A stretch of DNA of 64,000 nt from an uncultured Phycisphaerales bacterium (GTDB lineage Bacteria; Planctomycetota; Phycisphaerae; Tepidisphaerales; Tepidisphaeraceae): the NCBI GenBank assembly GCA_963755915.1, contig CAVWLP010000002.1:3200001-3264000 (forward strand), written 5' to 3'. Positions 26,324 to 44,600 of this stretch are shown in pieces. The notes under the pieces are model-generated. The model was not told the origin of the DNA, made no database searches, and saw only the letters and a list, made by a program, of their open reading frames with translations. The position numbers were made by a program, and so were the translations under genes. Each line of letters starts with the position of its first letter. The first letter of the stretch is position 1.

Positions 26324-27874
26324 TCAAGCGATCGCGGTCTTGGCGTCGGGCGGTTCGGCAACGCCATCGGGTTCGGCGTGCAGGATGGGTTCCTTGCCGG
26401 TGCCGTAGCGACTTGCGATCCCTTCCAGATCGGTCTCGATCATCTTGATCACGCTGCTACGCATGCCCCGTTGCACGAAGAGGAAGATGACGCCGAGCGC
26501 CAGATATCCCGCGAAAATGTATGGGTAATAGCGGATCGGCGGATCAGGCAGCGGGTAGAAGCTGCCGACGATCGGCACGATCATGAACAACAGCCCCAGC
26601 ACGGAAATCACAATGGCGCTGGGCGTGAGTTTTCCAAGCCGCTTTAGATAAACCGGAGCCGCGATACAGATCAATACGAAGCCGACCAGGAAGCCGAAGC
26701 TGGCCATGGTGGCGACATCGTTCAATATATCCGTGAGCGCACATTGCCAGTATTTCATGCAGAAGAATCCGATGATCAGCGAGATCGCGGCGCAAACGGT
26801 CACCGAGACGTGCGGCGTTTCGTGCGTCTTGTGTGCCCCAGCGACCGATTTGTGGATCACGCCGTGATGCGCCATGGCAAACATGATTCGGCAGGCGGCA
26901 TTGAAGCTGCCGAGCGTGCATCCCAACGCGCTGACCAGGACCATGATGGTCATGATCGGCCCCAGCCAACCCATGTGCAGGTAACCAGTTAAAGTCGATA
27001 ATACGTCAGCATTTCCGTCCAATGTCGTCCCGGACGCGGCAAAACCGCCGACGATCGCGAAGCTGCTCAGCACGTAAAACGTTGAACCAATCGCAACCGC
27101 GCCGAGGACCGCCCGCGGTATGGTCTTCAGTGGATTTCTTGCTTCTTCGCCCAGTGAAGTGGCGCTTTCAAATCCGATATTACAGAACACAGCCAACACG
27201 ATCGCCAGGAAAAATCCCTGGAAAGTAAATCCTTCGAGCTTGATCTGCGGGACGTACACTTTAAAGCCGGTCTTGGCAAAGACCCCCAGGACCACCAGCG
27301 TGAGAAGCGCGATACTGGTGAATTCCAAAATCAACATCAATTTTGCGGAGAGTTTGATGTCGCGGTAGGCGACATACCAGGGGATGAGGATAGCAAGAGT
27401 ATAGGTAATATACGGCCACGCTGCGCCGGTCGGTGAGTGGAAAAGCAGCAGCATGAAATTCGCGGCCGCCCCGGCAAGGGCGATGCCGCAACCCACATAG
27501 GCAACCAACCAGCCCCAACCCACCATCACGCCCGCGGCCGGCCCTAACGCCATGGTTGTGTAGGAGTAAAGCGATCCGGGTGAAGCCGACAACCGCGCAA
27601 ATTGGTTGATGTTCAACCCAACGAATCCCAGTCCGATTCCGGCAAACAGATACGATAGCCACGTGGCATTACCGGACGAGACAAATGCCAGGCAGATGAT
27701 CGCCGCCATCGACGCTGATGGCGCAATTACGGCGATCGATTGCGCCAGCGTCTACACCGGCGTAAGGCAACGAAACCTCAGCCCGTAGACACCCGTTTTC
27801 TTTTCATCGGGGTTGTCAGTTCTGTTGTAATCGGCCACAGTGGCCACATTGCCGGGTGCAGTGGTAGTAGACAT
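26324..27874 (-). CDS. APC-family amino acid/amine permease with an in-frame TAG at codon 41
   Basis: AGGAG RBS and ATG at 27874 give ...LTPV*TLAQSIAVIAPSA, continuing in frame into ORF 26324-27709 (GSLYSY, GFESATSLGEEARNP). Confidence 0.85.
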
Positions 27875-27972
27875 AAAACTGGACTCCTGGAGCTGTTTGC
27901 AGAATCCACCGGTGAATTCGAGAAAGGCAGTTTTTTGTCACCGGACGGAGAGCGGATGGTTAATTTGCAAAT

Positions 27973-27988
27973 CGCAACTCGCATACCA
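27973..27988 (-). promoter_or_regulatory. Sigma54-type promoter of the permease
   Basis: TGGTATGCGAGTTGCG has GG-N10-GC spacing and lies about 100 bp upstream of the ATG. Confidence 0.6.
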
Positions 27989-28047
27989 TTCGCGCGAGGC
28001 GATACATGCGTGAGGCAAGAATCAAGCATTTAAGCTCGTCCATGCTT

Positions 28048-28470
28048 TCATTGTTGACGTGAAATCCGCCAGGCGTTGTCGGCCCATTCAAATCCCAGCG
28101 GCTTGTAGTAGTCCTTAGCTTCCGGAGCCGCGAGCAAGAGGATCGTCACATCGCGGCTTAGCTGTTTCTGAACGAAGTCGATGAGCGCCTTGCCAATCCC
28201 CATCCTCTGGCAGGCTCGATCCACCGCAAGATCGGATAAATAGCAGCAGTAACTGAAATCGGTCAGCGCTCGGACGACGCCGACCAGTTGGTCCCCTGTC
28301 CAAGCCCCCGCGAAAAGATTCGCGTGTTGAATCATTTTGGTCAGCCTCGGTAAATCATCCGTCGGACGGCGGATTCCGGACCGCGCGAATACGTCTCCGA
28401 GCTGCGCGGCGGAAATGGGCTTGTCCCGCGCATCTCGGATAGCGAAATTCAACGGCTTTTGATTCGTCAT
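28048..28470 (-). CDS. GNAT N-acetyltransferase
   Basis: YLSDLAVDRACQRMGIGKAL and YYKPLGF. Confidence 0.92.
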   Translation of the reverse strand: MTNQKPLNFAIRDARDKPISAAQLGDVFARSGIRRPTDDLPRLTKMIQHANLFAGAWTGDQLVGVVRALTDFSYCCYLSDLAVDRACQRMGIGKALIDFVQKQLSRDVTILLLAAPEAKDYYKPLGFEWADNAWRISRQQ

Positions 28471-28699
28471 GGATTATTCGAGTTTTTCCACGCCCGCAGA
28501 GGAGCGACCTCACGATCTTCCTTCAGTGCTACTCCGCTGATTCGTCTGCGGAGGCTTACTATAAAAAGGTAGTGCAATGTTTCACTTGCTACTGCTGGAG
28601 GCAGACCCTGTGGACCGATATTCGAGACGCAATTCCGGTTGCCGTCTGATAGACGAGCAGTTTCTCAAAGGCAAAGGACATTGGCGGGATCGTACCGGA

Positions 28700-28796
28700 A
28701 GAAAGTAGAGAGTAGAAAGGAGACCGCAGGAGTTTGCCCGTCAAGCCAGTTGGTCGTCGAATGCTGGTCTTGCCTTTGCTTTCCTCTCTACTTTCT
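28700..28796. repeat. Long imperfect inverted repeat / hairpin
   Basis: AGAAAGTAGAGAG (28700-28712) pairs with CTCTCTACTTTCT (28784-28796); inner AAAGG/CCTTT and AGACC/GGTCT also pair. Confidence 0.55.
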
Positions 28797-28833
28797 ACAC
28801 CTCTCCTGCTCTATTTTTCGCTGCCGCGAAAAA

Positions 28834-28875
28834 TCGGGGCGACAGGATTCGAACCTGCGACCTCTTGACCCCCAG
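28834..28875 (-). mobile_element. 3' half of tRNA-Pro(GGG), an att site of an integrated element
   Basis: CTGGGGG-TCAAGAGGTCGCAGGTTCGAATCCTGTCGCCCCGA contains the anticodon loop, T-arm and 3' acceptor strand; the 5' half is absent. Confidence 0.85.
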
Positions 28876-29311
28876 AAGCAATTTTCCACAGCCGAAAAGC
28901 AGCGGAATCACTCGGATTTTGTAGCATTTTATGAATGTCGGGTCCTATTGCAAGTGCTTGCAGATCGCTTCCAGTATTTGCAAGCACTTACCGTAATCGC
29001 CGCGTGAAAAAACCGTAGAAGCGATGATCGATTGGCGCAGAATTTCAGTCATCAGTGGTAGGGCGGTCGGTTTAACAATGTGCAATCATCCCTTTTCTCA
29101 TCTGTCTATCTTGCAAAACGCCGCCAAATCCGCCAAATCCGTCGACGACGCAGCTCAGTCGTGTTGTTAATAAGCAGCAAGCTAAATCCGCGCTAAATTT
29201 CCGCCCGTTTTGCGTCAATATATTTGAGCGGTTCCGATCGCCATCAGCGGTCGTGACTTTCCTGTATTTCCCGTCGCATTTCACCGCCCCAGCGGGCAAA
29301 GGAGACCTCGC

Positions 29312-29758
29312 ATGCCCTTATCCATCAACGTGGGCCTCAGCCGGAAGGCCTCAAAGGATTATCAATCCACCGGCGTCAGCATCAACGTCACCGCGGAGCT
29401 TGATCAGGCGCTGCTGGCAAAGCCGGATCAGCTGCAAAAACAGATTGGATATCTCTATTCGCAGGCCCACCAGGCGTTGGACGGCCAGATGAACCAGCCA
29501 GCGGGATCCGAAAACGCCAGCTCCGGAAGATCAGCCCCTAAATCAGCTGCGGTTAATGGCAACGGTCGTGGCTCTGCAGCCATGACCGCCAGCCAGCGGC
29601 GGGCGATCCTGGCGATCGCCAAGCGCTGGGATTTCAACGTGGACTATGAATGCCGGGAGCGATTCGCCACGGCATTCGATGATCTGTCAATCCGGCAGGC
29701 CTCGGAGCTGATTGACCATCTGAAATTGTCCACGCCCACCAGCGACTCCCGGAGGTAG
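29312..29758 (+). CDS. Hypothetical protein, first gene of the element operon
   Basis: AAGGAG RBS and a 148-aa ORF with a helical C-terminal domain. Confidence 0.7.
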   Translation: MPLSINVGLSRKASKDYQSTGVSINVTAELDQALLAKPDQLQKQIGYLYSQAHQALDGQMNQPAGSENASSGRSAPKSAAVNGNGRGSAAMTASQRRAILAIAKRWDFNVDYECRERFATAFDDLSIRQASELIDHLKLSTPTSDSRR

Positions 29759-29810
29759 TCCTGCCGCGTCGTTTTTGATCTCCGATATCTAAAAAAAAGG
29801 AGTTTTCGCC

Positions 29811-30189
29811 ATGAGCATGCTCACGGCGCCGGCAGTCCCTGCGCCAGCGGTTCTCAATCGCCCGCCCAACCGCCTGGCGGAGCTGATCACCGGCAGAACC
29901 TATCTGTCCCACTCCAGCTTTCCACGATGCGATCGTGCCCCAGGAAGTTCGCCTTCCAATATGTGGAGAAAGTTCCGGCGGATTTCATCCCCAGCAGCCT
30001 GATCTTCGGCGGCTCGATTCACTCGGCGCTGGAGTTTTATTTCCGGGCCCGGCTGGAAGGATTGGAGGTAACCCAGGACGCCCTGCTCTCGGCGTATCAC
30101 GACGGCTGGAAGAGACAGAGGGGGACCACCGGTCTCAATGTCCCGGTTAAGTACAGCAAGGATCAAACGGCTGATTCTCTCCACGCCCT
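29811..30189 (+). pseudogene. PD-(D/E)XK (RecB/AddB-like) nuclease, N-terminal part only
   Basis: AGGAG RBS; YLSHS, a frameshift, then CPRKFAFQYV...LIFGGSIHSALE; truncated before the catalytic motifs. Confidence 0.75.
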
Positions 30190-30727
30190 GTGCGTATGGC
30201 CCTTAAGGTGCAGCGGATCCTGGAACGATACAGCGCCGATCCCAGTGACTGCCTTCACCGGGATGTGAAGAACATCCTGGTCATGACCCGCCTGCTCAAA
30301 AAGCAGCACAAAATCCTCACCCTCGCCCGCGAGCACCACTGGCAATCGGCATCCCGGCAGCTTCACGAGAACCTGCTGGTCCGAGTCCGCGAACTCCACG
30401 AGGCGGCAAGCCAGATCATCTTCCGCCGGGCGCCGATTTCCCGGCTCTACACCCTGACCCTCCGGGACCTTTGCGATGAGATCCGGCAGCTGGAAGAGGA
30501 GTTCACATCCGTCAGCCTGGACCTCAAAGCCGGGATGATCTCTGTCGATACCGACGAGATCGAGCTTCAGAGGCTGTATCTGGGAAGCTTCCGCATAAAA
30601 CTGTCCATGGTGTCATGGGGCGCGCAAAACCGGCCAATTGAGGGCGCGCCAAAACCGGCCATTTTGAGGCACAGGAGATTGGGTTATCGACCTTGGCTTT
30701 CGGCGGTTGCCGCAAGCCAATGGTGGG

Positions 30728-32456
30728 ATGGCCAATCAACTCAAGATGGCGGAAGTACAAGCAATTTTGGCACTTGCGCAGCGGCTGGTCCAATCGGAAC
30801 ATCGCCCGCCAACTCGGCGTTCACCGGGAGACCGTTGGACGCCACATCCGGTTGTCGGGCGGCGATCCTGCGGCGCCCGGATCGGATTCAAAACCGGCCA
30901 GCGCCCTCGGCTCGAGGTGCTCGCCGCAGGCGGCTCGACGGTGCTCGCCGCAGGCGGCTCGACGGTGCTCGCCGCAGGCGGCTCGACGGTGCTCGCCGCA
31001 GGCGGCTCGACGGTGCTCGCCGCAGGCGGCTCGGAGAGCGCGCCGCACCGGGTTATCCGGCGCGCCCATCGGGTCGGTCAGTACGGCATCGCCCTGGCGT
31101 GAGGTCATTGTTCAGAAGTTGGAAGCCGGGCTGACGGCCCAGCGGATTTATCAAGACATCTCCAGCGATCACGGCTATGCCGGCAGCTATTACAGCGTGC
31201 GCCGGTTCATCAAGAAGCTCTCGGCTGCCGCGCCGGCGCCCTTTCGCCGGATGGAATGCGAGCCGGGAGCCGAGGTGCAGGTGGACTTCGGCCGGGGTGC
31301 GCCCTGGTCGGTCCTGACGGCAAACGCAAAGCAACCTGGGTCTTCCGCATTGTGCTGAGCCACAGCCGCAAGGGGTACGCCGAGGCGGTGGAGCGGCAGA
31401 CGACCGATGATTTTCTGCGTTGTCTGGAAAATGCCTTTACGCACTTCGGCGGGATGCCGTCAGCGCTGGTGATCGACAATCTTCGCGCGGCGGTGACGCG
31501 GGCGGACTGGTTCGAGGCGGAGTTGTGTCCCAAGGTCCGGTCGTTCGCCGAACATTATGGAATCGCCATTCTGCCCACCAAGCCGTACACGCCGCGGCAC
31601 AAGGGGAAGATCGAGCGGGGCATCGGCTATGTGAAGAGCAATGCTCTCAAAGGCCGGCAATTCGCCTCGCTCTCGGATCAGAACTGCGCATCTGCTGACG
31701 TGGGAGAAGAGCGTGGCCGACACGCGCATCCACGGCACGACGCGGCGGCAGGTGAAGGAAGTCTTCGAGCAGGTAGAGAAGCCGGCACTGTTGGCTCTGC
31801 CGCCGGTGCGATTCGATCTTTTCACCGAGGCGTTGCGCAGTGTTCACCGCGACGGGCACGTGGAGATCAAGGGGGCGTACTATTCGGTCCCGCCGGAGTT
31901 TTTGGGCCAGCGGGTCTGGGCGCGGTGGGACGGGCGCACGGTCCGGCTGTTCGATCAGAAGATGCGTGCGATCGCTCTGCACGCGCAGCGTCCGCCGGGC
32001 AGGTTCTCGACGCAAGACGCCCATATCCTGCCGGAGAAGATCAGCGGCATCGAGCGTGGAACGACCTGGCTTCTCCAGCGGATCGAATGCATCGGGCCGC
32101 ACGCCACGCAGTGGGCGCAGTCAATGCTTCAGCATCGCGGCATCGAAGGCGTGCGCGTGTTGATGGGGCTGCTGTCGCTGGCCAATCAGCAGCCGCGACC
32201 GGCCGTGGAACGAGCCTGCGAGATTGCTCTGGGGCATGGCGCGTATCACCTGCGCTCCCTGCGGCAGCTCATCGAACACCAAAACGGCGCGCCGGTTCAA
32301 CAACACTTCGAGTTTGTTCAGGAACATCCAATCATCCGCGGACTGGCCGATTACGGACAGTTCGTACGCGACGCAATCACCCAAGCGGAGGCTTTGCCTG
32401 CCGCACAACCTTTACAGGCCTGCCCTGAGCAGAGCCGAAGGGAGTCCACCCCATGA
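30728..32456 (+). CDS. istA: IS21 transposase (frameshifted)
   Basis: MANQLKM...IARQLGVHRETV HTH, QVDFG, IDNLRAAV, KGKIERGIGYVK, RIHGTT and YYSVP. Confidence 0.92.
30908..31033 (+). repeat. 24-bp tandem repeat, about 5 copies, inside istA
   Basis: Unit GGTGCTCGCCGCAGGCGGCTCGAC starts at 30916, 30940, 30964, 30988 and 31012. Confidence 0.95.
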
Positions 32457-33343
32457 GACCTTCGTTGATGCAGACGCTCAAGCAACTTCGGCTTTCAGGT
32501 CTGGCGAGCAGCCTTGAAGTTCGCCTGAGCGAGGCGGCCGGCAATCGGCTCGACCACAGTGAGTTTTTGGAACTGATCCTTCAGGATGAACTGAACGTCC
32601 GATCCAGCCGGCAGATCGGCCGGCGCGTCAAGGCGGCGATGTTCCGCGACACCAAAAACCTCGACGAGTTCGACTTCTCCTTCAACACCTCCATCAAACG
32701 CAAACAGATTCACGATCTGGCCGCCGGCCAGTTCATTCGTGACAAACGTGACGTGCTCTTGCTGGGTCCGCCCGGCGTGGGCAAATCGTTTTTGGCCCAG
32801 GCCATCGGACACCAGGCGATCAAGAGCGGCTTGGTGGTCCTGTACCGATCCATCTTCGACCTGGCCCGCGACTTTTTAGGCGACGAGGATCTGGGAGCCC
32901 AGGACAAGACGCTGGCCCGGTATCTCAAGCCTGATCTGCTTATCATCGACGACATGGGAATGAAGCAGCTTCCGCGGCGCAGCGGCGAATGCCTGCTGGA
33001 GATCGTCATGCGCCGGCACGAGAACCGCTCGACGATGATGACCAGCAACCGTCCACTGGAGGACTGGGCCAAGCTGATCGGCGACGTGCCGGCGGCCACG
33101 GCCATTCTGGATCGGTTCCTGCAGCACGCCACGATCATCAACATCACCGGCAAGAGCTACCGCCTTCGGCATGGGGGCCATTCGACTTCGCTCACGGCAG
33201 GCCAATCCGGGACACCGGAAAAGACAAATCCAAAAGGACGGCGGAGTACCGCCGGCGATGAAGGGTGCTCCCCCCCGGAAGACACCGTGACAGAGCCGCC
33301 GTTGTCTTCTGATGTGGGGGTATCCGCCGGCCAGACGGCGTGA
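32453..33343 (+). CDS. istB: IS21 helper ATPase
   Basis: GPPGVGKS, LLIIDD, TSNRP and AILDRF...GKSYR. Confidence 0.95.
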   Translation: MRPSLMQTLKQLRLSGLASSLEVRLSEAAGNRLDHSEFLELILQDELNVRSSRQIGRRVKAAMFRDTKNLDEFDFSFNTSIKRKQIHDLAAGQFIRDKRDVLLLGPPGVGKSFLAQAIGHQAIKSGLVVLYRSIFDLARDFLGDEDLGAQDKTLARYLKPDLLIIDDMGMKQLPRRSGECLLEIVMRRHENRSTMMTSNRPLEDWAKLIGDVPAATAILDRFLQHATIINITGKSYRLRHGGHSTSLTAGQSGTPEKTNPKGRRSTAGDEGCSPPEDTVTEPPLSSDVGVSAGQTA

Positions 33344-34002
33344 ACGGGGACCAATAACTCAAGGAACAGTTGCGTCGGATAGAACGGATGCGGTATAGAA
33401 TACGTCAGCACATTGGCCGGTTTTGAAGCGCCCCGCCCTGGCTGGTTTTGGTGCGCCCCGTGACACCATGGCCAACCTGGGCCGGTATGCCGAATCCCGG
33501 GCGTTTGTGATTGAGGCCCTGGATCCCCAGCCCGCGGCCAGCAATGAGGAGGTCATCCACCCCCATGTACAGAGCGGGGCCCTCTGCGCCGGGGATGCCA
33601 TGGCTCCCATAGCCAGCGCCCTTAAGGAGGGGCGGCTGGCCGATGCCTTCCTGGCTGTTAATTCCGTCCTTCACAACTACAACCCCTCCTCCCCCTACGT
33701 TGCCATTGAGGACTGGGAGGGCACCCGCTGCAACGACTGCGAGTGCCTGGTGGATGGGGATCGCAGCTACTTCTGCCACGGCTGTGAAAACAGGGTCTGT
33801 GATGAATGCTCCCGCTGCTGCGATGTCTGTGATGATGTCTATTGCCTCAACTGTCTGGAAACGATCGAGGACCCGGAGCTGAAGTACCTGTGTGAACACT
33901 GCCGGGCCCGGTGTGAGGGATGTGACGGTTTTGCCGTTGCAGATGAACTCAAGGAGGGTCTTTGTCCCAACTGCTTTAATCAACAAGAACAGGAGAATAC
34001 CG

Positions 34003-34388
34003 ATGAACAGTCAAACTCTGATTCCGCCGCCCAGGATAGCGGCGCAGCGATCGCCGGTGCCGGCGGAACTAATCCCGGCTCGCCTCAAACAGCAGTCTCG
34101 GCGCCAGCCTGAGAGGCGTCAAAGTGTCCTGCGCTTTGCTCCTCTGGCGTGGCTGAAGCTGCGACTCTTTCTTCATGCCGGAGAGACGGAGGATGGATGA
34201 GTATGGGAGCGGCGGTGTTCCCGGAGGAATTTGTGCGGCCTACGGTACGGGTTTCGGCTCCCCATCCGTCACCCCGCACTCTTCTGGACCGCCCGGACAT
34301 GCTGGATGAACTGTATGACCGGGCATTCCTGGATGAGCGGATGGAGGAGCTTTACCTGGCGTCCATGCCGGAGGAGGCATGCTCATGA
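34003..34388 (+). pseudogene. Probable JAB/MPN peptidase remnant with its catalytic core deleted
   Basis: AGGAG RBS and ATG at 34003; LRFAPLAWLKLRLFLHAGETE breaks near 34191 and jumps to an acidic tail whose stop overlaps a ThiF ATG. No HxH motif remains, so the call rests on the N-terminal pattern and gene position. Confidence 0.5.
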
Positions 34389-35062
34389 CCACGGTAACAG
34401 AGGTGCCTGATCTATCCCTTCGGGATATCCGGCAGAGAGATTTGGTGCCGCCTGAGAAGCTCGCCGGCTGTCATGCCCTTGTTATTGGCGTGGGAGCCGT
34501 GGGCCGGCAGGTAGCTCTACAGCTTGCCGCGACGGGAATATTCCGGATGACCCTGATCGATCACGATGTCGTGGCGGTCGAAAACCTCGCCCCCCAGGGT
34601 TACTGGCCGGACGATTTGGGCAAAGTCAAAGTAGAAGCGATGGCCCAGCTGTGTCGGAAGATCAACCCGCAAATCGAGCTTGATCTCTATACCGAGCGGT
34701 TCCGCCGTTCGTCGGTAAAGAGCCTGGGCTGCTTTACACAAAGCGATCGCAGGCTCGCGGTCTTTTGCTGCGTTGATTCGATTGAGGTCCGGGCCATTGT
34801 CTGGGAAGCGGTTCGGCATCTGGCATCATTTTTTGTCGATGCGCGGATGGCGGCGGAGGTGGTGCGGGTGCTGGCGTCGGAATGACCGAGTAGTGACACC
34901 CATTACGGCACGACTCTGTTTCCGGCGGCTGAGGCGCATACCGGCTCCTGCACGGCCAAAAGCACGATCTATACCGCCAGCATTGCCGCGGGATTGATGA
35001 TGGCTCAGTTTACGCGCTGGCTGCGGGGATCGGCCAGCAATTTGGCCAGCTCTTCATCATAA
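34379..35062 (+). pseudogene. ThiF/E1-like adenylyltransferase with an in-frame TGA at 34883 and a clipped C-terminus
   Basis: VIGVGAVG, IDHDVV..ENL..Q, GKVKV and CCVDS. The same frame continues past the stop as [31 protein letters not shown]. Confidence 0.85.
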
Positions 35063-35400
35063 GGCTTCGCGTTTTCGGATGCGCGGCATCGGGCGCGCTC
35101 TGCTTCAAGCTTGTTGATGATGTAGTTGCGGACGGCCCGCGAGATAGTTGCGGAACCGGCCGACAGGCGAAGCGTGTTCAAATAGCTTGCCCGTCAGGAA
35201 ATGAGACAAAAGAAAATCCTGTTTCCAGTCCTCAGCATCCTGTGGGCGATGTGGAATCCGCTTCTGAAAAAGTCGCAGGAGGGGGTGATCGTATAGCTCA
35301 ATAAGCGTCCTCCGAGCAGCTTGCGCCGGCGATCTCAATTCCTCGTGCCCGAACGATCTTTGTCCACGCAGTCGGTGGACACATCTCTTCCAACACAGAC
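35035..35400 (-). pseudogene. ECF sigma factor-like fragment
   Basis: ARRTLIELY...DAEDWKQDF...GRFRNYL resembles sigma region 2; broken reading frames. Confidence 0.5.
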
Positions 35401-35585
35401 GGACGATCTCCCCCTGTTGCCCTCCCGGCAGATCCGGCGGTGCCCATTACAATCTGGTGATTGTCCATTATTCGGTCGCTCCTGGGTGCAAATCACACGA
35501 TTACATTATCGCTTGATGCGTAAATCGCTTCAAGATGGTTATGCTTAAAGCGCATCAACTTCGCTTTGGCGGATAGTTCCCGCCG

Positions 35586-35831
35586 ATGCCGACCAAGCGA
35601 AATCAGGCCCTGATTTACCGAAAGGTTCCGAGTTTTTTACGGGAAATGCGGGAAAAGGCCCGACTGACCCAGCGACAGTTAGCGAATCGAATTCATCAGA
35701 GCCAATGGTGGGTCGCGAGGTCTGAAACGGGAAGCCGGCGATTGGACGTGGCCGAATTCATTGAATTCTGCATCGGCTGTCGGCGCGATCCTTCCAAGGC
35801 GCTCACAGAATTGGCCGAAATGCGTCGTTGA
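35586..35831 (+). CDS. XRE-family HTH regulator
   Basis: LREMREKARLTQRQLA...ETGSRRLDVAEF. Confidence 0.88.
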   Translation: MPTKRNQALIYRKVPSFLREMREKARLTQRQLANRIHQSQWWVARSETGSRRLDVAEFIEFCIGCRRDPSKALTELAEMRR

Positions 35832-35899
35832 TCTCGCGTTGCGATACTGGTGGCGTTTTGTCGCCGGCGCCGGATTGTCGACGCAATTGGGCAACCGCG

Positions 35900-36096
35900 T
35901 GGAATCATCGCAACGGCAATTGGCTGAAGCGCTGGGGCGTGAACAAAATCTGATTGGCCGCATCGAGACGGGTCAGCGGCGAATCGATTTAATCGAGTGG
36001 GTGGGAATCTGCCGGGCCTGCAAGGTGGATCCGGAAGTTGAAATCGCGCGGCTGGTGCGGCAGATCAAGCCGCTGGTGCCCCAGCGGCGGCGATGA
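35900..36096 (+). pseudogene. Second XRE HTH paralog with a degraded 5' end
   Basis: SQRQLAEALGREQNLIGRIETGQRRIDLIEW; no convincing start codon. Confidence 0.65.
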
Positions 36097-36205
36097 GATG
36101 GACAACTGCCCGGGCAACTTGCAATTAACAATCGCGGCTTCAACCTTTCTGGTCGCCGTAGCTTTATATTGACATTGTTATAGCAAACCGATAAATGCCT
36201 CCACA

Positions 36206-36655
36206 ATGACCAGCGCAACCACCCTCTCAAAAGCCCTAAACGCGATCAAAACGGAGTTGGAAACACTGCGTCGGAAGAAAGTGGAGGCCATCCTTCGGCC
36301 TCTTCACCGCGAGCGGCGGAAACTTCAGGCGAGAGTCGAAAAGATCAACCAGTTGATCGATCGAGCACTCGGTAAGGCCGTGGTCGGAAAAGCAATTGCT
36401 TCAATCCCGGCAACAAACGGGAGAGGGCCCAGAAGTAGAAAACGTATCCGCCGAAGCGGCGAGGAGTTGAAAAAGATCGCCAATAGCGTCGTCGAATTCA
36501 TCAAATCAAAGGGTACGGCTGGCGTAACTCCCGCGGAGATCAAAGCAGCGTTTGGCCAGCTATTTCCAAGTCCACCGCAATTCGTCAAGAAGCACGCTGG
36601 AGTGCAGCTTAAGCGAAAGGGACACGCCAAGCGGCCGAGGTATTTCCATAGCTGA
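36206..36655 (+). CDS. Basic coiled-coil + putative DNA-binding domain protein
   Basis: N-terminal amphipathic coil, RSRKRIRRS linker and a small basic C-terminal domain. Confidence 0.7.
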   Translation: MTSATTLSKALNAIKTELETLRRKKVEAILRPLHRERRKLQARVEKINQLIDRALGKAVVGKAIASIPATNGRGPRSRKRIRRSGEELKKIANSVVEFIKSKGTAGVTPAEIKAAFGQLFPSPPQFVKKHAGVQLKRKGHAKRPRYFHS

Positions 36656-36718
36656 ATGATTTCGTATCGGCTGCACGCTTAATCACAGAGGCAAGCAACG
36701 CGAAAAGGGGAAAATAAG

Positions 36719-36955
36719 ATGGCGTCCGGAAAAAGCATTATTCGTATATCGCTCAGCGCAGAGGATATCCGCGCGCTTGAAAAGCTATGTGAAAAGCGAG
36801 GCATGACACAGATTTCACTGGTTTCCCGAATGGTAGAGTGGCTGGCGCGCCAGGATTATGACACCCAGAGCGATATCCTCACTTCCGGCTCGGAAGATGC
36901 GTCGAAGAAAACCCTGAAGTTGCTGAGGCGGATGGCGGCTCCGCGAAAAACATGA
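36719..36955 (+). CDS. Ribbon-helix-helix (CopG-like) small protein
   Basis: IIRISLSAEDIRALEKLCEKRGMTQISLVSRMVEWL has a strand-helix-helix pattern. Confidence 0.65.
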   Translation: MASGKSIIRISLSAEDIRALEKLCEKRGMTQISLVSRMVEWLARQDYDTQSDILTSGSEDASKKTLKLLRRMAAPRKT

Positions 36956-36989
36956 GTCGGCGTACGGCGCGACTTGCCTTACCAAATCC

Positions 36990-37100
36990 GTGAGCGATGT
37001 ATGAACCGCACCCACTCCTGCCCTCGACGGCATCGGGTTCCTCCGGAAGGTTCGTCATCAGATGCGCGAGGAAATGCTGGGGATCGATGCGATGCCGCTT
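36990..37100 (-). mobile_element. IS66 remnant (transposase C-terminus and right end)
   Basis: KRHRIDPQHFLAHLMTNLP, then an IS66-like terminus reading GTGAGCG on the + strand at 36990. Confidence 0.6.
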
Positions 37101-37498
37101 CAATGGGCCCGGCTTCGTCACCCTCAAAAGACGAAACTCAGAATGACATTCCCCCGACTGCCCTCGGCCCTGTCAGCGATTCGCATGGCTGAGTCTGGTG
37201 AGATTCTAAAAAACGTTTTTAGACTCAGCTGATCCAGTTACCAACTCCCCAGGACGGTTTACGGCCCAAGCTCGGCTTTATTGGGCCGCCAGGGCCTCCA
37301 GAACGAAGCCAGAGCAGTTAAGGAGTGGAAAAGGCGTAGGAACATTGGGGCATCAGGGTTCGTCTGGCGGGGGGGAATAGGGCGGGCGATAGATTTACCC
37401 TCGCGGCGAGTGCCATCTCAACTTCCACTCGTCGGGCTGCCAATCGGCGTGGATGATAGATTCTGCTTCTAAATTGCGGTCCCCGGCAAATTCGCCGC

Positions 37499-37921
37499 CT
37501 AGAGCGATCGAAGCGCCTTGGCCGCCTTGTTGGCGTCGGCCGGGTTATCCATGCCGAGGTAGGCGACGAAATTCCGCCCGATAACGGCCATGGAAATGCC
37601 GCGAACGTTCACGCCGGCCTCGGCGATCGCCGCGGTGATTTTGCCGCCCAGGCCAGGCTTATCGGTTCCCTCGATCCGCAGCGTGACAATGTGCGCCGCG
37701 GCTGACAAGCCCGCAGCCTTGGCCGCGGCAGTCACCTTGCTTCCCTTGATCGGCGTAACAAAAACGCTCCCTTGTCCAGGGCTCGCCGGATTGCGCCTGG
37801 CGATGACACATTCGAGGTCTGCTCCCGCAGCCCCGATGATCTGTAACACTTTAGCCAGGCCGCCGGGTACGTCGCTGATTTCCCCAGCCCACACATCCAC
37901 TTTGGAAATCTTTAATGACAT
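37499..37921 (-). CDS. Tandem ACT-domain protein
   Basis: DVPGGLAKVL...GADL and DKPGLGGKI...AGVNV. Confidence 0.88.
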   Translation of the reverse strand: MSLKISKVDVWAGEISDVPGGLAKVLQIIGAAGADLECVIARRNPASPGQGSVFVTPIKGSKVTAAAKAAGLSAAAHIVTLRIEGTDKPGLGGKITAAIAEAGVNVRGISMAVIGRNFVAYLGMDNPADANKAAKALRSL

Positions 37922-38646
37922 GGCTTCTCCTTTCACTGTCGGGATCGAGAAATGTTTCTGCAATTCAGGCATTCTAACACGGCATGTCTCGGGTAACACA
38001 GCTGCGGCGCCGGTATGAATGGAGATGGCTCAGATTCCAGGGGGAGCCGGCAGCACAAAGTTTCTTTCAAAGGATTCGTCGGTGCCTGCGGATCGGCAGT
38101 TGATTGCCGGTCCGCGGCATCGGCGATAACGATGGAGTGCACAGAAACGCGAAACTCTTTTTCTTTAGCCGTTGTGGGGCACAGTGACCCCTGATTCACG
38201 TTCGCTAAGGTCCGTCAGTGGCGGAGTGTGCCAGGTAAGAGCGAGGCCAGTGTCGCCGTGACGAACCCAGCGCATCAGGAAACTGAGCGGGGCGGTGGCT
38301 CGGGCGCGGAAGATCAGGAACTGGTTCGGCGCACACAAGCGAACACCACGGAAGCGCTGATGACATTCATTGGAGCGATCGCTTGGCCTGCTCAAGTTCG
38401 AAGGGGTGCCGCACCTCGGTCGGCCAGCTAAGCGCGGAGCGAGGCCGAGATGATCTACTTCATCCAATGGCGAGTTTTTCCATTTAGGAAGCCTGGGCGA
38501 GCGCATCAGGCAAGCGAAAGGCCGAAGGCTTCCATTCATGGAAAGCGGCCTTGGCAGCTTGCCGGGCCTGGCGGCGGTTTTAGACGTCGCCGTCCATAAA
38601 GGCCGCGTGTCGCGGATCGCGGCAGCGGGAGGGTATAAGCCTCCGA

Positions 38647-41600
38647 TTACGGACGCAAATGCTTCGGCGGAGGGGAGGCCGTAATTGTGAACGGATTGGA
38701 AGTGTCGGCGACGCAAAAGTCGAGGAACACTTCGAGCCTGTAGGTGCCGCCCGCGTTCACGGAGAGATTGCTGAACGTGGCGACGCCATTCACGGCCCGA
38801 ACCCGGGTTGTGCCGGAAAGAATTCCCTGATGACCGCTCGTTTCCAGGAAGAGCGTGACCGTTGAGTTGAAGCCGGTTTCGAGATTGCCGTATTGATCCT
38901 CGACATCGACGACGACCGGGCCGATCTGGTCTCCCGCGCCGGTGCTATTGGGCTCATCGACAAACACGAGCCTGGCCGGCGCGGCGGGAGTGATCTTGAA
39001 GCTGTCGGTGAGCGCCGAAGTGTCGGTGCCGTCGGTGGCCTTGAGGGTGTAAGTGCCGGCGGTGGTGAGGTAGAGATTCCAGAAGATGGCAACGCCATGG
39101 AATGCGCGGACGCTGACCTGGCCGTGGAGATTTCCAGGGCCGGAAACGACGCTGAGAGTTACCGTGGAATCGTCGGAAGTCGCCAGTTTGCCCTTGTTGT
39201 TTTCGATGTAGACGACCACGGGTCCGAGCCAGCCGGCCTCGGTCGTGCGCGGCTCGACCAGGAACTCGAGTTTGTTCGTCGCCGGAGCAGGGGTAATCAC
39301 GAACGTAACCGCGGTGCTCATCACCGGCGCGTAGTCCGTGCTGCCGGCGAACGAACCTACGAAGGTGTAGGTGCCGGCGGTGCTGGGCGCGTCGCTCGTG
39401 CCGTTTCCATTTACAGTGCTGCCGATGTAGTAGGTGAAGGTTGGGCTGACGCCCTCGAGGCTGCCGGAGGGTGACACGCCGAGCGCGCTGAGCGTCGCCG
39501 TCGCCGGGTAGGTTGAGCCGTTGGCAACACCGCCGGCGTCGGAGACGGTAAGTGTCGGTGTAATCAACTCACCTTGCTGCTGAATCGATCCGGTGAATCC
39601 GGTTGTGCCGCCTGGAGTCGAGAACGTGGAGCCGTTCTCAACGATGATGGTTCCGCCGCCGGTGAGCGCGCCGGAGGTGACGATCTGGCTGCCGGCGCCT
39701 TCGATTTCGAGCGTCGCGCCCGCAGCAACCGTGATACCGGCTGGGAACGTCAAAAGGCCGTCCAATATCAGCGTGCCGCTTTCCAGATCGATCGGATTTC
39801 CGACGATGGGATCGGTAATGGTGGCCACAGTCGTGAAGTTCGATGTGGAAGATTGCTGCCGGCCGACACCGATGGTTCCGATGAAATAGGCGATCACACC
39901 GGGGGGCGCAATTGGGGCACCGAAAGGATAGTTCTGGGAGGCTAAGACTAAGATTGTGCCGCCGCTGCTGTTCACCTGGCCGGTGTAGCTCGGATTGCTG
40001 CTGGCCACTTCAAGAGTATCCAACCCGTTCTGAAGTGAAATATTTCCGGCGCCCGACAGAGTGCCGAATAACGCAATATCGCCGGTGAGAAGCAGCGTTC
40101 CATTGGTGATGGTTAACGAGCCTTCCAGTTTAAACCGCGTGGTACCGGCGGCGATTGTGGGACTGTTCGTCGCCACGATTGGGTTGCTGACGCCCGTGTA
40201 ATTGGTGCCGTTGGGATTCGACGCGACGGCGTTCAGGAGGGTGGCGCCGTTGAGCGTCAGAGTACCCGATCCAAAGGGGTGAACGTCGGCAATGTCATTA
40301 TCAATGGCAACTGCGCCAGCAGCGAGGGTAATCGGACCGGTGTAATCGAAATCGCCGGTATACATCCCGGCGGCGTCGGTGGTGAGGGTGCCCGCCTGCA
40401 TGTTGATGCCGCCGGCGCCGGTGATGGTGCCGAGATTCGAGCCGGCTCCCTCCAGTATCACCTTTCCTGTGCTTACCGTGATCTGGTTGGCTCCTCCGTT
40501 CAAGATGGCGCCGCCGATGATCAACGAGCTAAGCGGGCCTCCCGATGTCTGCGGCTCATCGGGTATGGCGATGGGGGCCGTGCTGGTGCCCGACAAAATC
40601 GCCGAGCCGATTCCATAGATATTCAGCGTGCCAGTTCCCTGAACGCCACCGGCGAGATTCAGAACGTCCGACGCGGAACTGGTGAAGATGTGGTCGTCGC
40701 CCGTTCCGGTCATCACCGGATTGCTGAAGGCGATCGAACCTTGCGTTTGCAGGAAGGTGCCGCTCTGGTAAACAAGGGTGTTATCCAGAGTCACCGTTTG
40801 AGAATTGCCCTGGGTATTGATGAGCAAGGGAACGATGGAACTGGGGCCCTGTGGATTGGCGATGATGAGCTGACCGGCGCCGAGGACGGATGTGCCTGGG
40901 GTGGCGTTGATAACGTCCTGAACGTTCATTCCCTGGTCGATGATGATGTTGCCGGTAAATTGGCCGACGGAGGCCGAAGAAGCGAGGGTTCCGACCTTGA
41001 GTTCGATAGCGCCGGTGCTCTGGAGGTTGGTCAATAGATTTACGGTACCGGCGTCGATGACGATCTGGCCATCGCTGGTGCTGGTTGCGCCATTCAAGGT
41101 GCCGGAGAGGTTGAGAACGGGTGCGGTACCATTGAGGTCGAAGACGACGCCGTTGGCAACGGTGCCACTGATGGAAACGGTGTTCGAGGTGAGGGAGGAG
41201 TCGAGGGTGGCAGTTCCGGCAAGGGTGCCGGTGAAGGAGAGGTTGGTGCCGGCGGTGGCGGTGAGGGTGCTATTGGCGTTAACGGTGACTGTACCGGCGA
41301 AATTTGTATTGCCGGTGACGTTGACGGTGGCGCCCTGGAACACGATGGGGGTGTCGATTGCGAGCGAGGCAGTGGAGGAGCCATCAACGAGGTATGGGCC
41401 GGTGGTTCCAGAGGTGTTTGTCGGGGCGGCAAATATGAGTTGACCGATGCCAAGGACGCTGGTGGCGGTGGTGGCGAGGACTTCGGCGGTGAGGCCGGTT
41501 TGCGGGGTTTCGGCGGAGATATTGCCGCCGTAGTTGGGAGCGCCGGCGGCGATGAGTGTGCCGGACTGGATGTCGATGCCACCGTTGCCAGTGAGAGTGT

Positions 41601-44600
41601 CGAGCAATTGGACGTTGCCGCTGGCCAGGACGATCTGGTTGGCGCCACCGACGTCCCCCTGGAGGGTAGCGCCGAGGTTTACGGTTCCGGAGGCGGCCTG
41701 GACGACGAGTGTTGGGGCGATGGTTCCGGTGATGGAGGCGGTGTTGTTGCTCATGGACATCGCGAGGGTGCCGGTGCCGTTCATGGTTCCGGTGAAGGAA
41801 AGATTGGTGACGAGACCGGCCGAAATCGTGTTGTTTTGGGTAACGGTGATGGGGCCGTTGAAGACGGTGTCGCCGGTGACGCTGAGGGTGGTTCCATTGA
41901 AGAAAACAGGATCGCTGAAGTTGAGGGGGGTGTTATCCTCGGAACCGACGATGGCAGGAAACGCGGTCGGGGATGTTGGCGCGGCGGAAAAAATCAGCGG
42001 GGCGCTGCCGAAGTCTTTGGCGTCGGGTGTGACGACAAGCGATGTGGATTCGCCAGTGTCGTTTGGTGTTTGGACCGTGATATTTCCGGTGAAGCTGGGG
42101 AGCGAGCCTGCCGCGAGGGTGCCGTATTGAATATCAATTCCAGTATTGCCGGTTACGGTGCTCAGGAGCTGGACTACGCCGCCGGAATCGGTGACCTGGT
42201 TGGCGGTGGCAGCGCCGAGAAGGTTTCCGGCGAGGGCGAGGGTGCCGTTGGAGTCCTGTGCGGTGAGGGTTACGGAGGCGTTGACGTCGCCGCTGACACT
42301 GAGGGTGCCGTCCATGTTGTCGGTGAGCTGGCCGACGCCCTGGATTCCGTCGGAGAAGGTGAGGAATGCGGGGGTTAAGCTGCTGTTTATATATGACTGA
42401 GTGCTGTTGACTGTCACCATTTTTTCGATCGTGACGTTGCCGGATACTTCGAGATTGCCGGAGGTTTCAAAATCGAGGGTGTTATTGAGCAGAAGAGACC
42501 CGACGACGCCGACTTCAGAAATGGTTGGCGTCAGGGGGTTGCTGCCCGTGGGTGTGGCGATGACGATTGTGCCGGTGCCAAGGGGATCGGTGACGACGGA
42601 GAGCTGTACCTGTGCCTGGCCGGTTGGTGTTCGTTCGAGGGTGATGGTCCCGGTGTAATCAGGAACGCCAGCGGAGTTGAGTATGCCGCTCTGAACGTTG
42701 ATGCCGCCGGTGCCGCTCATGCCGGTTTCGAGGACGAGTGTGCCGCCGTCTACGGTTACCTGGTTGTCGAGGCTGTCGAGTTTTCCGGAAAGATCGAACG
42801 TTGTGGCAGGGACCTGGATCTGTACGGTTTCGGCGACGCTGCCGCTGATGGTGACCACTCCGGCGCCGAACAGGGTAAGGGTGCCGTTGCCAGCAATGTC
42901 ACCCTGCAAAGCCATGGTGTCGCCCTGGCGCATGGATTCGCCCACGTCCTGACCGTTGACGGTGATGCTTCCGGCAAACAGGACCGTGGGATCTGTGGCC
43001 AGCGTGGCGCCGTTTTGGAAAGTAAGATCGTTGTCCAATTCCGCCGATCCGCTGCCCGAATCGTCGATGGAGACGGGACCCGAGCCCGCTCCGATCGTAA
43101 GTGCCCCATCACCAAAAGCGTCGTCGGCGGCGCCGTCATCAATCGTGACGCCCGCCATAAGCGTCGTCGAGCCGGTATAGGTGTCGGTGTCGTCAAACGT
43201 AGCGATCCCCGCGCCGATACGGTGAGGCTCGCCCCGCTAAGCACCGATTCTATCGTCAGATCGCCCGTCTGGTCATCAACTGTTGGTGAGCCAACGAGCG
43301 TGGTGGCGATGTCATACGTGTTATTTCCGGATTCCGAAGTGAGGCCGCCCGTCAGCGAGATTGCATTGCCGCCGAGCGTGTAGCCGGCGCCCTGAATTTC
43401 GATGTTTGCGACGGATAGACCGGTGATGTCGTTGTTCGGCGAAAGCGTCCCACCTGCCGCAAACACCAGGCTGTCGCCGGAAACGGGAGCAACATCCTCC
43501 GACCAGTTCTTGGCGTCGCTCCAGCTCGTTCCATCGCCACTGCCAGTCCACGTCAGGCTGTTGGCGATGCTGAACTGATTCGAGGTCGCGTTGGCGGCGG
43601 GGCTGTCACTGCCGGTCTGATCCGCGGTGAGGGTGTATTCACCGTCGACTTCAATCGCCGGCCCCCCGGGGTCAGTGAACGTCGCCTGGCCGTTAACGAT
43701 CGGGGCGAACGTCGTGCCGGTCAGCGCGGCGCCCTCGCCGCCGGAAATCGTGTTCAGCGACAGGGTGATTGTTCCGGTGGCCTCTGTATCGACCGTGTTG
43801 TTTGAATCATCGACCGAGACGACCAGGGGAATCTGCGTGTTCGGCGCGGCACCCATCGGTTGGGACGTAAAGACGAGATGTTCGCCGGTGATCTGAAAGC
43901 TATTGCTAATGACATCGCTCGTGTCGGAACTGCTGGCGTCGAAGGTGTAGTTGCCGGCGAGGTTGACGGATAGGCTGTTGAACGTCGCGACTCCATTGAC
44001 GGCATCGACGGTGGTGTTTCCGCCGAGGGTGCCGCTGCCGCCCTGAAGCGCCAAGGTGATTGCGCCGGTTTCGTTGGTGTCGATGTTTCCGTTGGAATCG
44101 AGAAACTCGACGGAAACGGGGGCCATCGTGTCGCCGGTGGGAGTGCTTGCTGCCGGTTGCGCAACCCATTGCAGCGTGTCCTGGGGAACGAAATAGCTCT
44201 CCAACTGGTAGGTAACAGATATATCGCCCTCGTCAGTGCTCTCCTCCTGCACGATTCCGACATTTGGGGCCCACCAAATGTCGGTACCGAATGTGGCGGT
44301 GTCGTTGGGATCGCCATCAGTGTCGGTTTCGGAATATTGAATTTCGTAGGAGTTGAATGTGCCGGCTGGCACGGTGAGTGGCGAGGGCGTCTCGGAAACG
44401 AGCGTGAAGGTCTGTGCGTCGCTCTCCTGCGATTCGGTCGTGTCGTCGGAGTCCGAAGTGTCGGTATCAGTAGATGTGTTGCCGATCGGCTGTCCCGCGG
44501 AGAGATTGGCGGGCATGATGACCTCGGGCGGGGAATAGGTATCGGTATCGGTTCCGTCGTCGTCTGCATATTCAACGATGCCCGCGCTGGTTGATCCGAT

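Follow-up and report, generated by a model that had tools for sequence, protein, structure and literature searches.

The window analysed here is a stretch of 64,000 nucleotides from the genome of an uncultured Phycisphaerales bacterium (contig CAVWLP010000002.1, positions 3,200,001 to 3,264,000), and our subject is a gene in it that is interrupted by an insertion sequence (IS). The gene encodes a protein predicted to resemble ubiquitin-conjugating enzymes (E2s) and carrying a C-terminal array of cysteine pairs. We gave its family the working name E2Zn. E2Zn is a large bacterial family without a name, and the window copy is an inactivated member of it. Taking the evidence together, we considered it likely that the window holds the inactivated gene of an enzyme built from a helical hairpin, a minimal ubiquitin-conjugating (UBC)-like core with the invariant stretch HPH-x6-C-x-G at its putative active site, and a four-zinc array. 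This enzyme would belong to a protein-tagging operon encoding a ubiquitin-like protein (Ubl), E2Zn, a JAB peptidase and an activating enzyme (E1).

The interrupted gene and its family

The open reading frame (ORF) lies in two parts on either side of the IS, as follows:

30190-30610, + strand: 5' part of the split E2Zn ORF, codons 1-140 and base 1 of codon 141 (profile positions 8-147 of 353)
30605-30610, no strand: left copy of the target-site duplication CCATGG
30611-33465, + strand: IS21-family insertion sequence of 2855 bp, with IstB_IS21 and IstA-type domains and TGTCA ends
33466-33471, no strand: right copy of the target-site duplication CCATGG
33472-34112, + strand: 3' part of the split E2Zn ORF, including the stop codon (profile positions 146-335)
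33558-33566 and 33585-33587, + strand: HPH and invariant Cys, respectively, of the active-site stretch HPH-x6-C
33729-33974, + strand: eight CxxC pairs (16 Cys)

The initial annotation, made from the sequence of the window, had proposed that excising the IS and one CCATGG copy would give a continuous frame of about 353 amino acids (aa). This was borne out. When 30190-30610 was joined in frame to 33472-34112, the result was 353 codons and a stop, with 0 internal stops. The 5' part comprised the hairpin of helices, alpha1 and the opening strands of the beta-meander of the UBC-like core, and the 3' part held the remaining core, the zinc array and an acidic low-complexity tail. The two halves did not match unrelated families, since the family profile matched both, at E=3.7e-26 and E=2.9e-71. 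In addition, the same genome contained an intact paralog, an uninterrupted ORF of 379 aa at C2:1642190-1643326. The halves aligned on it back to back and in the same frame (C2:1642292-1642708, then 1642712-1643215), and the rejoined gene was colinear with it. The identity to the paralog was 38.9% (130/334 aligned positions), and that to any retrieved homologue was at most 48.8%. These values indicated that the window protein represents a separate lineage and is not a recent duplicate of the paralog. It carried two substitutions at sites conserved in at least 90% of the family, Ile for Thr169 and Ile for Leu219.

The interrupting segment, 30611-33465, was a discrete IS of the IS21 family. It encoded an IstB ATPase (PF01695, IstB_IS21, E=4.9e-66) and an IstA-type transposase, in which helix-turn-helix and Mu-transposase C-terminal domains were found. 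Its termini were imperfect inverted repeats starting with TGTCA, accompanied by internal repeats, and the target site was duplicated. BLAST recovered 15 copies in the genome as single full-length alignments, besides many further copies split at an internal repeat. The 15 full-length copies were flanked by a direct duplication of 6 bp in 10 cases and of 8 bp in one, and by none in four.

To assess how well the proposed motifs are conserved, the window protein was aligned with 232 members of the family, each 300-460 aa long (n=233). The 232 were those within the length limits among 253 proteins (P0001-P0253), and the other 21 were dropped for length. The HPH-x6-C core and the eight CxxC pairs predicted by the initial annotation were confirmed as family features. 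HPH together with the Cys was conserved in 232/233, the single exception having HLH, and the putative catalytic Cys at 33585-33587 was present in 233/233. All eight CxxC pairs were kept in 206/233. The remaining 27 lacked a CC pair at only one or two columns, mostly in pairs 7 and 8, where alignment slippage is possible. We sought co-loss of pairs 7 and 8 as a clue to metal pairing, and the patterns were too few and too mixed to be read. An earlier alignment of 101 sequences gave the same picture for HPH, Cys and the CxxC pairs.

The family proved to be large. Of 2819 candidate proteins from a word-indexed search with the paralog as query, 125 reached E<=0.001. They were mostly about 350 aa long, those with names were called hypothetical, and just one had a precomputed Pfam domain (P0072, Siva). 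The few source names among them were Planctomycetota, Tepidisphaeraceae and Roseimicrobium. A family alignment of 100 sequences (A1) was then used with HMMER, searching 1.84 billion representatives of 50% identity clusters exhaustively. This search found 3329 representatives at E<=1e-3, of which 2036 also passed a limit of 1e-10 and 1306 one of 1e-30. In the ESM Atlas, an E2Zn member fell in an unnamed cluster of 2546 proteins. The E2 core alone, used as a query there, gave no usable match among the named clusters. Of 401 scanned genomes of the phylum, 27 had matches and 14 had full-length genes. Twelve of these 14 genomes belonged to one family, in which 20 genomes were scored, and the highest copy number in one genome was five matches, four of them full-length. 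No informative family in Pfam, NCBIfam or PADLOC was found for either half, the paralog or the 100 A1 members; the commonest Pfam matches among the latter were weak ones to Siva (12/100) and an ANCHR-like B-box (4/100). Because these collections hold no model of it, annotation and defence-finder pipelines miss E2Zn despite its at least 1306 clusters.

Two further observations concern the reach of the family. At L023 1456-2889, there was a distant relative of 478 aa with HPH-x7-C and a Cys array of another kind, rich in Asp and Tyr, which suggests that the family is wider than its 350-aa form. The second-best feature match (0.89) of a full-length member in the ESM Atlas was a cluster of 55 members labelled Viruses/Uroviricota. 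This match was weak, and that phages encode relatives of E2Zn is a weak lead. A scan of viral contigs with the paralog, by a method limited to close relatives, found none.

The predicted enzyme: core and zinc array

The structure of the paralog was modelled with AlphaFold2 on A1, giving a mean predicted local distance difference test score (pLDDT) of 90.0 and a predicted template modelling score (pTM) of 0.74. The helical N-terminus expected from the sequence appeared in the model as a hairpin of two long helices, residues 33-83 and 86-114. It was followed by the core, consisting of a helix (124-137), a beta-meander (140-189), HPH at 203-205, Cys 212 and two helices (214-225 and 229-241). On the C-terminal side of the core came short hairpins carrying the CxxC pairs and then a final helix. 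This predicted order of elements fits a UBC core minus its last helices, with the zinc array standing in their place. The top match of the model in the PDB by Foldseek was an E2, 3we5_A (prob 0.97, E=0.018, target-normalised TM 0.47), and E2s or E2 fusions made up 28 of the 48 rows listed.

A link to E2s was also found at the level of sequence profiles. Other proteins of the scanned phylum also matched the profile in its zinc part, and five of them (L019, L021, L022, L025 and L027) passed the Pfam model UQ_con with 31.9-42.1 bits against a cut-off of 27. They had a canonical HPN...Cys core and a longer CxxC array. When A1 was aligned with these five E2s, the probability was 96.6% with E=5.6e-10, and THPHVxxxxLCAGD was aligned with FHPNIAPHAICIGD. 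The two parts were then compared separately by hhalign. The zinc part alone gave a probability of 96.1% (E=2.9e-9), and the core alone 15.7% (E=0.0017). We extended the comparison of the core to 113 bacterial UQ_con relatives of 280-335 aa, out of 120 listed. The score was 27.6, with P=7.4e-4 and a probability of 25.7% over 43 columns. In these columns, HPH fell on HPN, Cys on the catalytic Cys (Cys-x-G-D) and YNxxSP on YNxxSP. Among 23 controls, namely 20 shuffles of the columns, a reversal of the alignment and the unrelated alignments A3 of the E1 and A4 of the Ubl, the highest score was 16.0. The sequence link between E2Zn and E2s was therefore weak yet specific, and it was sited at the active site.

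The array of the window protein had the spacing CxxC-x11-CxxC-x4-CxxC-x3-CxxC-x4-CxxC-x12-CxxC-x3-CxxC-x13-CxxC. Folded alone with a family alignment (A5), it reached a pLDDT of 85.4 and was predicted to form short beta-hairpins with a CxxC at each turn. Among PDB sequences, the family profile found MID1 B-box1 (2ffw_A, E=5.5e-5) and the C4C4 finger of TFIIH p44 (1z60_A, E=0.0072) as the nearest to the array, and the first three Cys pairs shared the p44 spacing CxxC-x11-CxxC-x4-CxxC. The structure neighbours of the array model in the PDB were Ssl1/p44 (the best, E=0.03), Stc1, FYVE, tandem PHD and LIM fingers. The comparison with RING and B-box folds called for by the initial annotation thus gave a profile match to the B-box of MID1 and no specific structural match at E<=0.001. 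Judged from the models, the array is a distinct type of tandem, treble-clef-like zinc module, and its eight CxxC pairs probably bind four Zn. In the paralog model, it packed rigidly on the core, with pLDDT above 90 across the junction.

The same kind of array occurred elsewhere, on canonical E2s, in small stand-alone proteins with acidic tails and within larger proteins. It therefore appears to be a mobile module repeatedly associated with E2 cores. Stand-alone arrays with a strongly acidic tail were seen at L017 1495-2022, L018 1459-1776 and L020 1498-1788. In stand-alone relatives, Pfam zf-B_box scored 22 bits, below its cut-off of 24.1. The Prok-RING models of Pfam had no match to the E2Zn array in the 100 A1 members. 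The canonical form, a UQ_con E2 with the array, had 3518 relatives. In both loci of this form that were examined, L040 and L041, its genes adjoined Prok-RING_1 proteins. At L040 6149-8436 and L041 7763-11895, one to three neighbours had Prok-RING_1 fused to a trypsin-like peptidase or to DUF4190, and this looks like a distinct E2-RING-protease system. An E2 core joined to a CxxC array had been called an unusual architecture. It is so only in a relative sense, since the combination is common in some bacterial phyla, with the 3518 relatives of the canonical form and the 3329 of the E2Zn form.

Several results weighed against the reading of E2Zn as an E2 with a built-in target-binding module. Foldseek gave no match of the paralog model to the PDB at E<=0.001, and no E2 was among the 60 best matches listed when the family profile was compared with PDB sequences. 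The E2 models of Pfam and NCBIfam, including UQ_con and Prok-E2_A to E, matched 0/100 A1 members at E<=1, and PADLOC returned nothing for the paralog. The high score between A1 and the UQ_con E2s appeared to be owed mostly to the zinc arrays. The core alone reached hhalign probabilities of 16-26% over 43-46 columns, which is below family-level confidence. For the array, no PDB neighbour was found at E<=0.001, and no RING ligase (E3) was prominent among its neighbours. With Prok-RING_1 proteins beside the canonical relatives, the presence of an array on an E2 cannot on its own be taken to replace a RING or to make an E3 unnecessary. The suggestion in the initial annotation that the array could be E3-like was not established. 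No RING E3 in particular was among its PDB neighbours, and the homologous arrays occur on UQ_con E2s whose neighbours carry separate Prok-RING_1 domains, which argues against the array simply taking the place of a RING. Its proposal of an E2-like identity fared better. The fold neighbours, the match at the active site and the gene context spoke for it, and the curated E2 models did not. On the profile match, the fold neighbours and the gene context, we hold with good confidence that E2Zn is E2-like, while strict family membership was not demonstrated.

Intact operons, proposed function and decay of the window locus

In its own genome, the paralog stood in a tight operon of four genes at C2:1641946-1644718. 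They encoded, in this order, a ThiS-like Ubl of 75 aa, E2Zn, a JAB/MPN peptidase with the motif HTHPGTSPIPSYTD and a ThiF-type E1 of 231 aa. The ThiF match had E=1.1e-25, and those to Prok-JAB (5e-05) and ThiS (0.0046) were both weak. In 17 loci with a full-length E2Zn gene, the Ubl was found in 17/17, the JAB in 17/17 and the E1 in 16/17; two of the E1 genes were cut by the locus end, and none was visible in the L031 flank. The Ubl C-terminus was K-I-[ES]-G-A followed by 0-30 variable residues in 17/17 loci. In addition, a conserved cassette with an AAA ATPase preceded the four genes in 7 of the 8 20-kb loci from other genomes:

L033 3474-9043: upstream AAA cassette (also in L032, L034, L035, L036, L038 and L039)

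The cassette contained a classical AAA ATPase of 497 aa (PF00004, E=1.4e-26), a protein of 325 aa and several small proteins without a family. It was absent from the genome of the window. One further cassette protein had a weak match to PtuB (E=0.0078). Membership in the PRTRC system was rejected, since the score for PRTRC_ThiF was 27.7 bits where 144.75 are required and the remaining PRTRC models had no match.

From what is known of these families, we infer the following course of the reaction. The JAB peptidase would trim the tail of the Ubl and expose its conserved C-terminus, and the E1 would adenylate the Ubl. The Ubl would then be handed to the E2Zn cysteine as a thioester. E2Zn would transfer it to targets without a separate E3, with the zinc array serving as a platform for target or partner binding beside the active site. 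The JAB peptidase might also be able to reverse the mark. A predicted complex of the E1, the mature Ubl and E2Zn residues 118-350, made without controls, scored 0.01 against a mark of 0.32 and was uninformative either way.

The role of the array is the part of this scheme for which an alternative survived best. E2Zn could be a true E2 whose array is a structural, oligomerisation or docking domain, for the E1, the upstream AAA ATPase cassette or an E3, and is neither target-binding nor E3-like. We regarded this as possible and on balance rather doubtful. The rigid packing on the core (pTM 0.74, pLDDT above 90 through the junction) would suit a structural part, and the array exists in stand-alone and embedded versions. 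Canonical UQ_con E2s have the homologous array and, in their neighbourhood, Prok-RING_1 proteins as well. Its closest neighbours (B-box, p44 finger, LIM, PHD and FYVE) are mostly protein-binding or assembly modules. However, neither the conserved operon nor the upstream cassette contained a recognisable RING or any other E3 candidate, although three or four proteins there are without a family. The position of the array beside the active site fits target binding equally well. Because no RING was found in the operon and the array packs rigidly, we infer that a built-in platform for targets or partners is favoured over a RING-type activator.

A bolder form of the proposal is that E2Zn is the founding member of a large undescribed class of E2/E3 hybrids, in which a B-box/RING-like platform of four zinc ions selects the targets and the ThiS-like Ubl is ligated without an E3. 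We offer this idea tentatively and considered it unlikely. If it were true, the class would provide a living model of the first combination of E2 and E3 functions. Since its operons are mobile and frequently accompanied by an AAA+ ATPase cassette, such a class might also act against phages or as a bacterial 'tag and unfold' system. Recent work has established bacterial ubiquitin-like conjugation systems such as CBASS Cap2, Bil and Bub as genuine enzymatic cascades, and several of these serve in phage defence. For the question of how such systems select their targets when E3s are absent, a conserved and rigid zinc module near the active site of an E2, encoded in a simple operon with a minimal E1, would offer a compact system for the study of target selection by the E2 itself.

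A further reading was that the operon encodes a pathway of sulfur carriage or of biosynthesis, comparable to ThiS/ThiF or CysO/Mec, in which the Cys-rich protein would be a sulfur-relay or a metal or Fe-S protein and no E2. The sole family match of the Ubl was indeed ThiS, although a weak one (E=0.0046 and 1.4e-4), and the E1 is a minimal ThiF of 231 aa without extra E1 domains. JAB peptidases also act in CysO-type sulfur pathways, and sixteen Cys could in principle hold other metals. However, CxxC pairs placed regularly at the turns of hairpins are a typical feature of zinc knuckles and not of 4Fe-4S motifs. No biosynthetic enzyme was found in the conserved operon or cassette, and the distribution was patchy with up to 5 copies per genome, as in mobile systems. 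An E2 is favoured by fold neighbours of the UBC type and by the way HP[HN] and the Cys align. In addition, the Ubl has a variable tail past Gly-Ala, as do the Type II Bil Ubls, which need trimming according to their description (PMC10557695). We therefore judged a sulfur pathway very unlikely.

At the window locus, the genes around the interrupted ORF were decayed. They are listed below with the two genes of the IS:

29927-30268, + strand: PD-(D/E)XK nuclease gene fragment overlapping the 5' end of E2Zn (profile positions 11-77 of 247)
about 30693-32456, + strand: istA of the IS, with shifting reading frames
32453-33343, + strand: istB of the IS
34033-34373, + strand: JAB/MPN gene remnants, with 34033-34191 corresponding to JAB residues 2-42 and 34260-34373, in another frame, to residues 201-240
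34379-35029, + strand: ThiF-type E1 gene with an in-frame TGA at 34883-34885

No Ubl gene was present at the window locus, and the only one in the genome was that of the paralog operon. The nuclease fragment occupied the position that the Ubl gene has in intact operons. The JAB segment bearing the JAMM metal-binding motif was missing, by a deletion of roughly 470 bp. The window E1 was 65% identical to the paralog E1 over 209 aa; it had the TGA where the paralog has Arg, and its frame resumed beyond. One point counted against part of this evidence. The assembly is 81% complete in 3 contigs and the IS copies differ by insertions and deletions (indels), so indel errors may be present, and the frameshifts of the JAB remnant need caution. 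For this reason, small frameshifts alone would be unconvincing as decay. The IS insertion, the deletion of about 470 bp and the nonsense substitution are independent of such errors. These lesions indicated that the window copy of E2Zn is a pseudogene in a decayed operon and non-functional. The initial annotation had not mentioned this decay of the whole operon copy. The interest of the window copy is confined to illustrating how an operon decays during a burst of IS activity.

That the gene is not real, being a chance open frame or one split by an assembly artefact, has almost nothing to recommend it: the assembly (3 contigs, completeness of 81% by marker genes, contamination of 8%) may carry errors, yet both halves match one conserved family at the E-values given, the IS is exactly bounded and flanked by a 6-bp duplication, as are 10/15 full-length copies, and the join restores colinearity with the intact paralog.

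Some features of the IS and of its surroundings were noted in passing. The element differs from the IS21 family in nothing notable except a variable tandem repeat of 24 bp within istA (30908-31033, 5.3 copies, 99% matches). The number of units varied among the genomic copies of the IS, with more of them in the L001 copy. The frame of istA ran 0, then 2 (integrase core), then 0, and the shift points varied between copies (30693-32456 in the window and 5696-7516 in L001). These shifts may be either decay or indel errors of a long-read assembly of such completeness. A further copy of the same IS (L001 4687-7569 = G000:C2:1638687-1641569) lay upstream of the intact operon of the paralog, about 380 bp from its Ubl gene, where other genomes carry the AAA ATPase cassette. 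An island integrated at a tRNA was unsupported, because no tRNA gene was found at 27000-38000. A minus-strand ORF of 1503 aa at 38647-43158 had no Pfam match at E<=0.001.

Comparison with known systems

We compared E2Zn with the UQ_con E2s that carry a C-terminal CxxC array, which are named "ubiquitin-conjugating enzyme E2" at NCBI and occur in Planctomycetota and other phyla. As in E2Zn, an E2 core is followed by a homologous array, and the two forms occur in the same phylum. The active site H-P-[HN]-x6-C-x-G-D and YNxxSP of these proteins align with those of E2Zn. However, they passed Pfam UQ_con in 5/5 cases, whereas 0/100 E2Zn members matched any E2 model at E<=1. They are without the N-terminal helical hairpin, and their arrays are longer. 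Where they have HPN, E2Zn has His for the Asn. The neighbours also differed. In two loci, those of the UQ_con E2s were Prok-RING_1 and a trypsin-like peptidase or DUF4190, and those of E2Zn are the Ubl, JAB and ThiF.

For the array by itself, the best sequence-profile and structure matches were B-box and C4C4 RING-like fingers, namely MID1 B-box1 and TFIIH p44/Ssl1. These fingers have four pairs, whereas the E2Zn array has eight pairs and no His ligands. Burroughs, Iyer and Aravind reportedly described prokaryotic RING systems in 2011, with eukaryote-like archaeal and bacterial Ub operons that have a separate small RING E3. In the Caldiarchaeum-type Ub operons, Ubl, E1, E2 and JAB/Rpn11 are encoded together and a treble-clef-type zinc module is involved, according to the abstract of PMC5654768. 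The zinc finger there is a separate RING protein, whereas E2Zn has its array and E2 core in one polypeptide. Full-text literature searches and passages of Iyer et al. 2006 (PMC1779556), the preprint of Chambers et al. (PMC10557695), two 2024 preprints of the Corbett laboratory (PMC11601596 and PMC11601603) and Aravind et al. 2012 (PMC3417536) revealed no such fusion; this is provisional, since the 2011 work, the likeliest place, lies outside this search. On this provisional basis, the E2Zn fusion appears not to have been previously described.

The Bil system (BilABCD, Types I and II) is an anti-phage operon. It places Ubl, E2, JAB and E1 in one compact operon without a recognised E3, as does the E2Zn operon, and its patchy distribution with multiple copies is also seen in E2Zn. 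According to PMC10557695, the Type II Bil Ubls have residues beyond the conserved Gly that must be trimmed by their JAB peptidase. Since its residues also extend past the conserved Gly, the Ubl of the E2Zn operon probably needs JAB trimming. The enzymes themselves differ. The Type I Bil E2 has no His before the Cys and has a His after it (Table 1, row 6d, of PMC1779556). The Type II E2 is a 'CEHH' protein, and the Type II E1 is multidomain, with inactive and active adenylation domains (PMC10557695). In contrast, E2Zn keeps HPH-Cys and adds the hairpin and the zinc array, a comparison made with these published descriptions, and the E1 of its operon is a single ThiF domain of 231 aa. The E2Zn operon thus has the Ubl-E2-JAB-E1 set of genes, and neither a BilB-type E2 nor a Type II E1 in the form described there. 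These comparisons suggested that the E2Zn operon is a variant of the known Bil-like bacterial conjugation operons, in which a role in defence would follow by analogy only and the conjugating step would be carried out by an unannotated enzyme made of an E2 and a zinc array.

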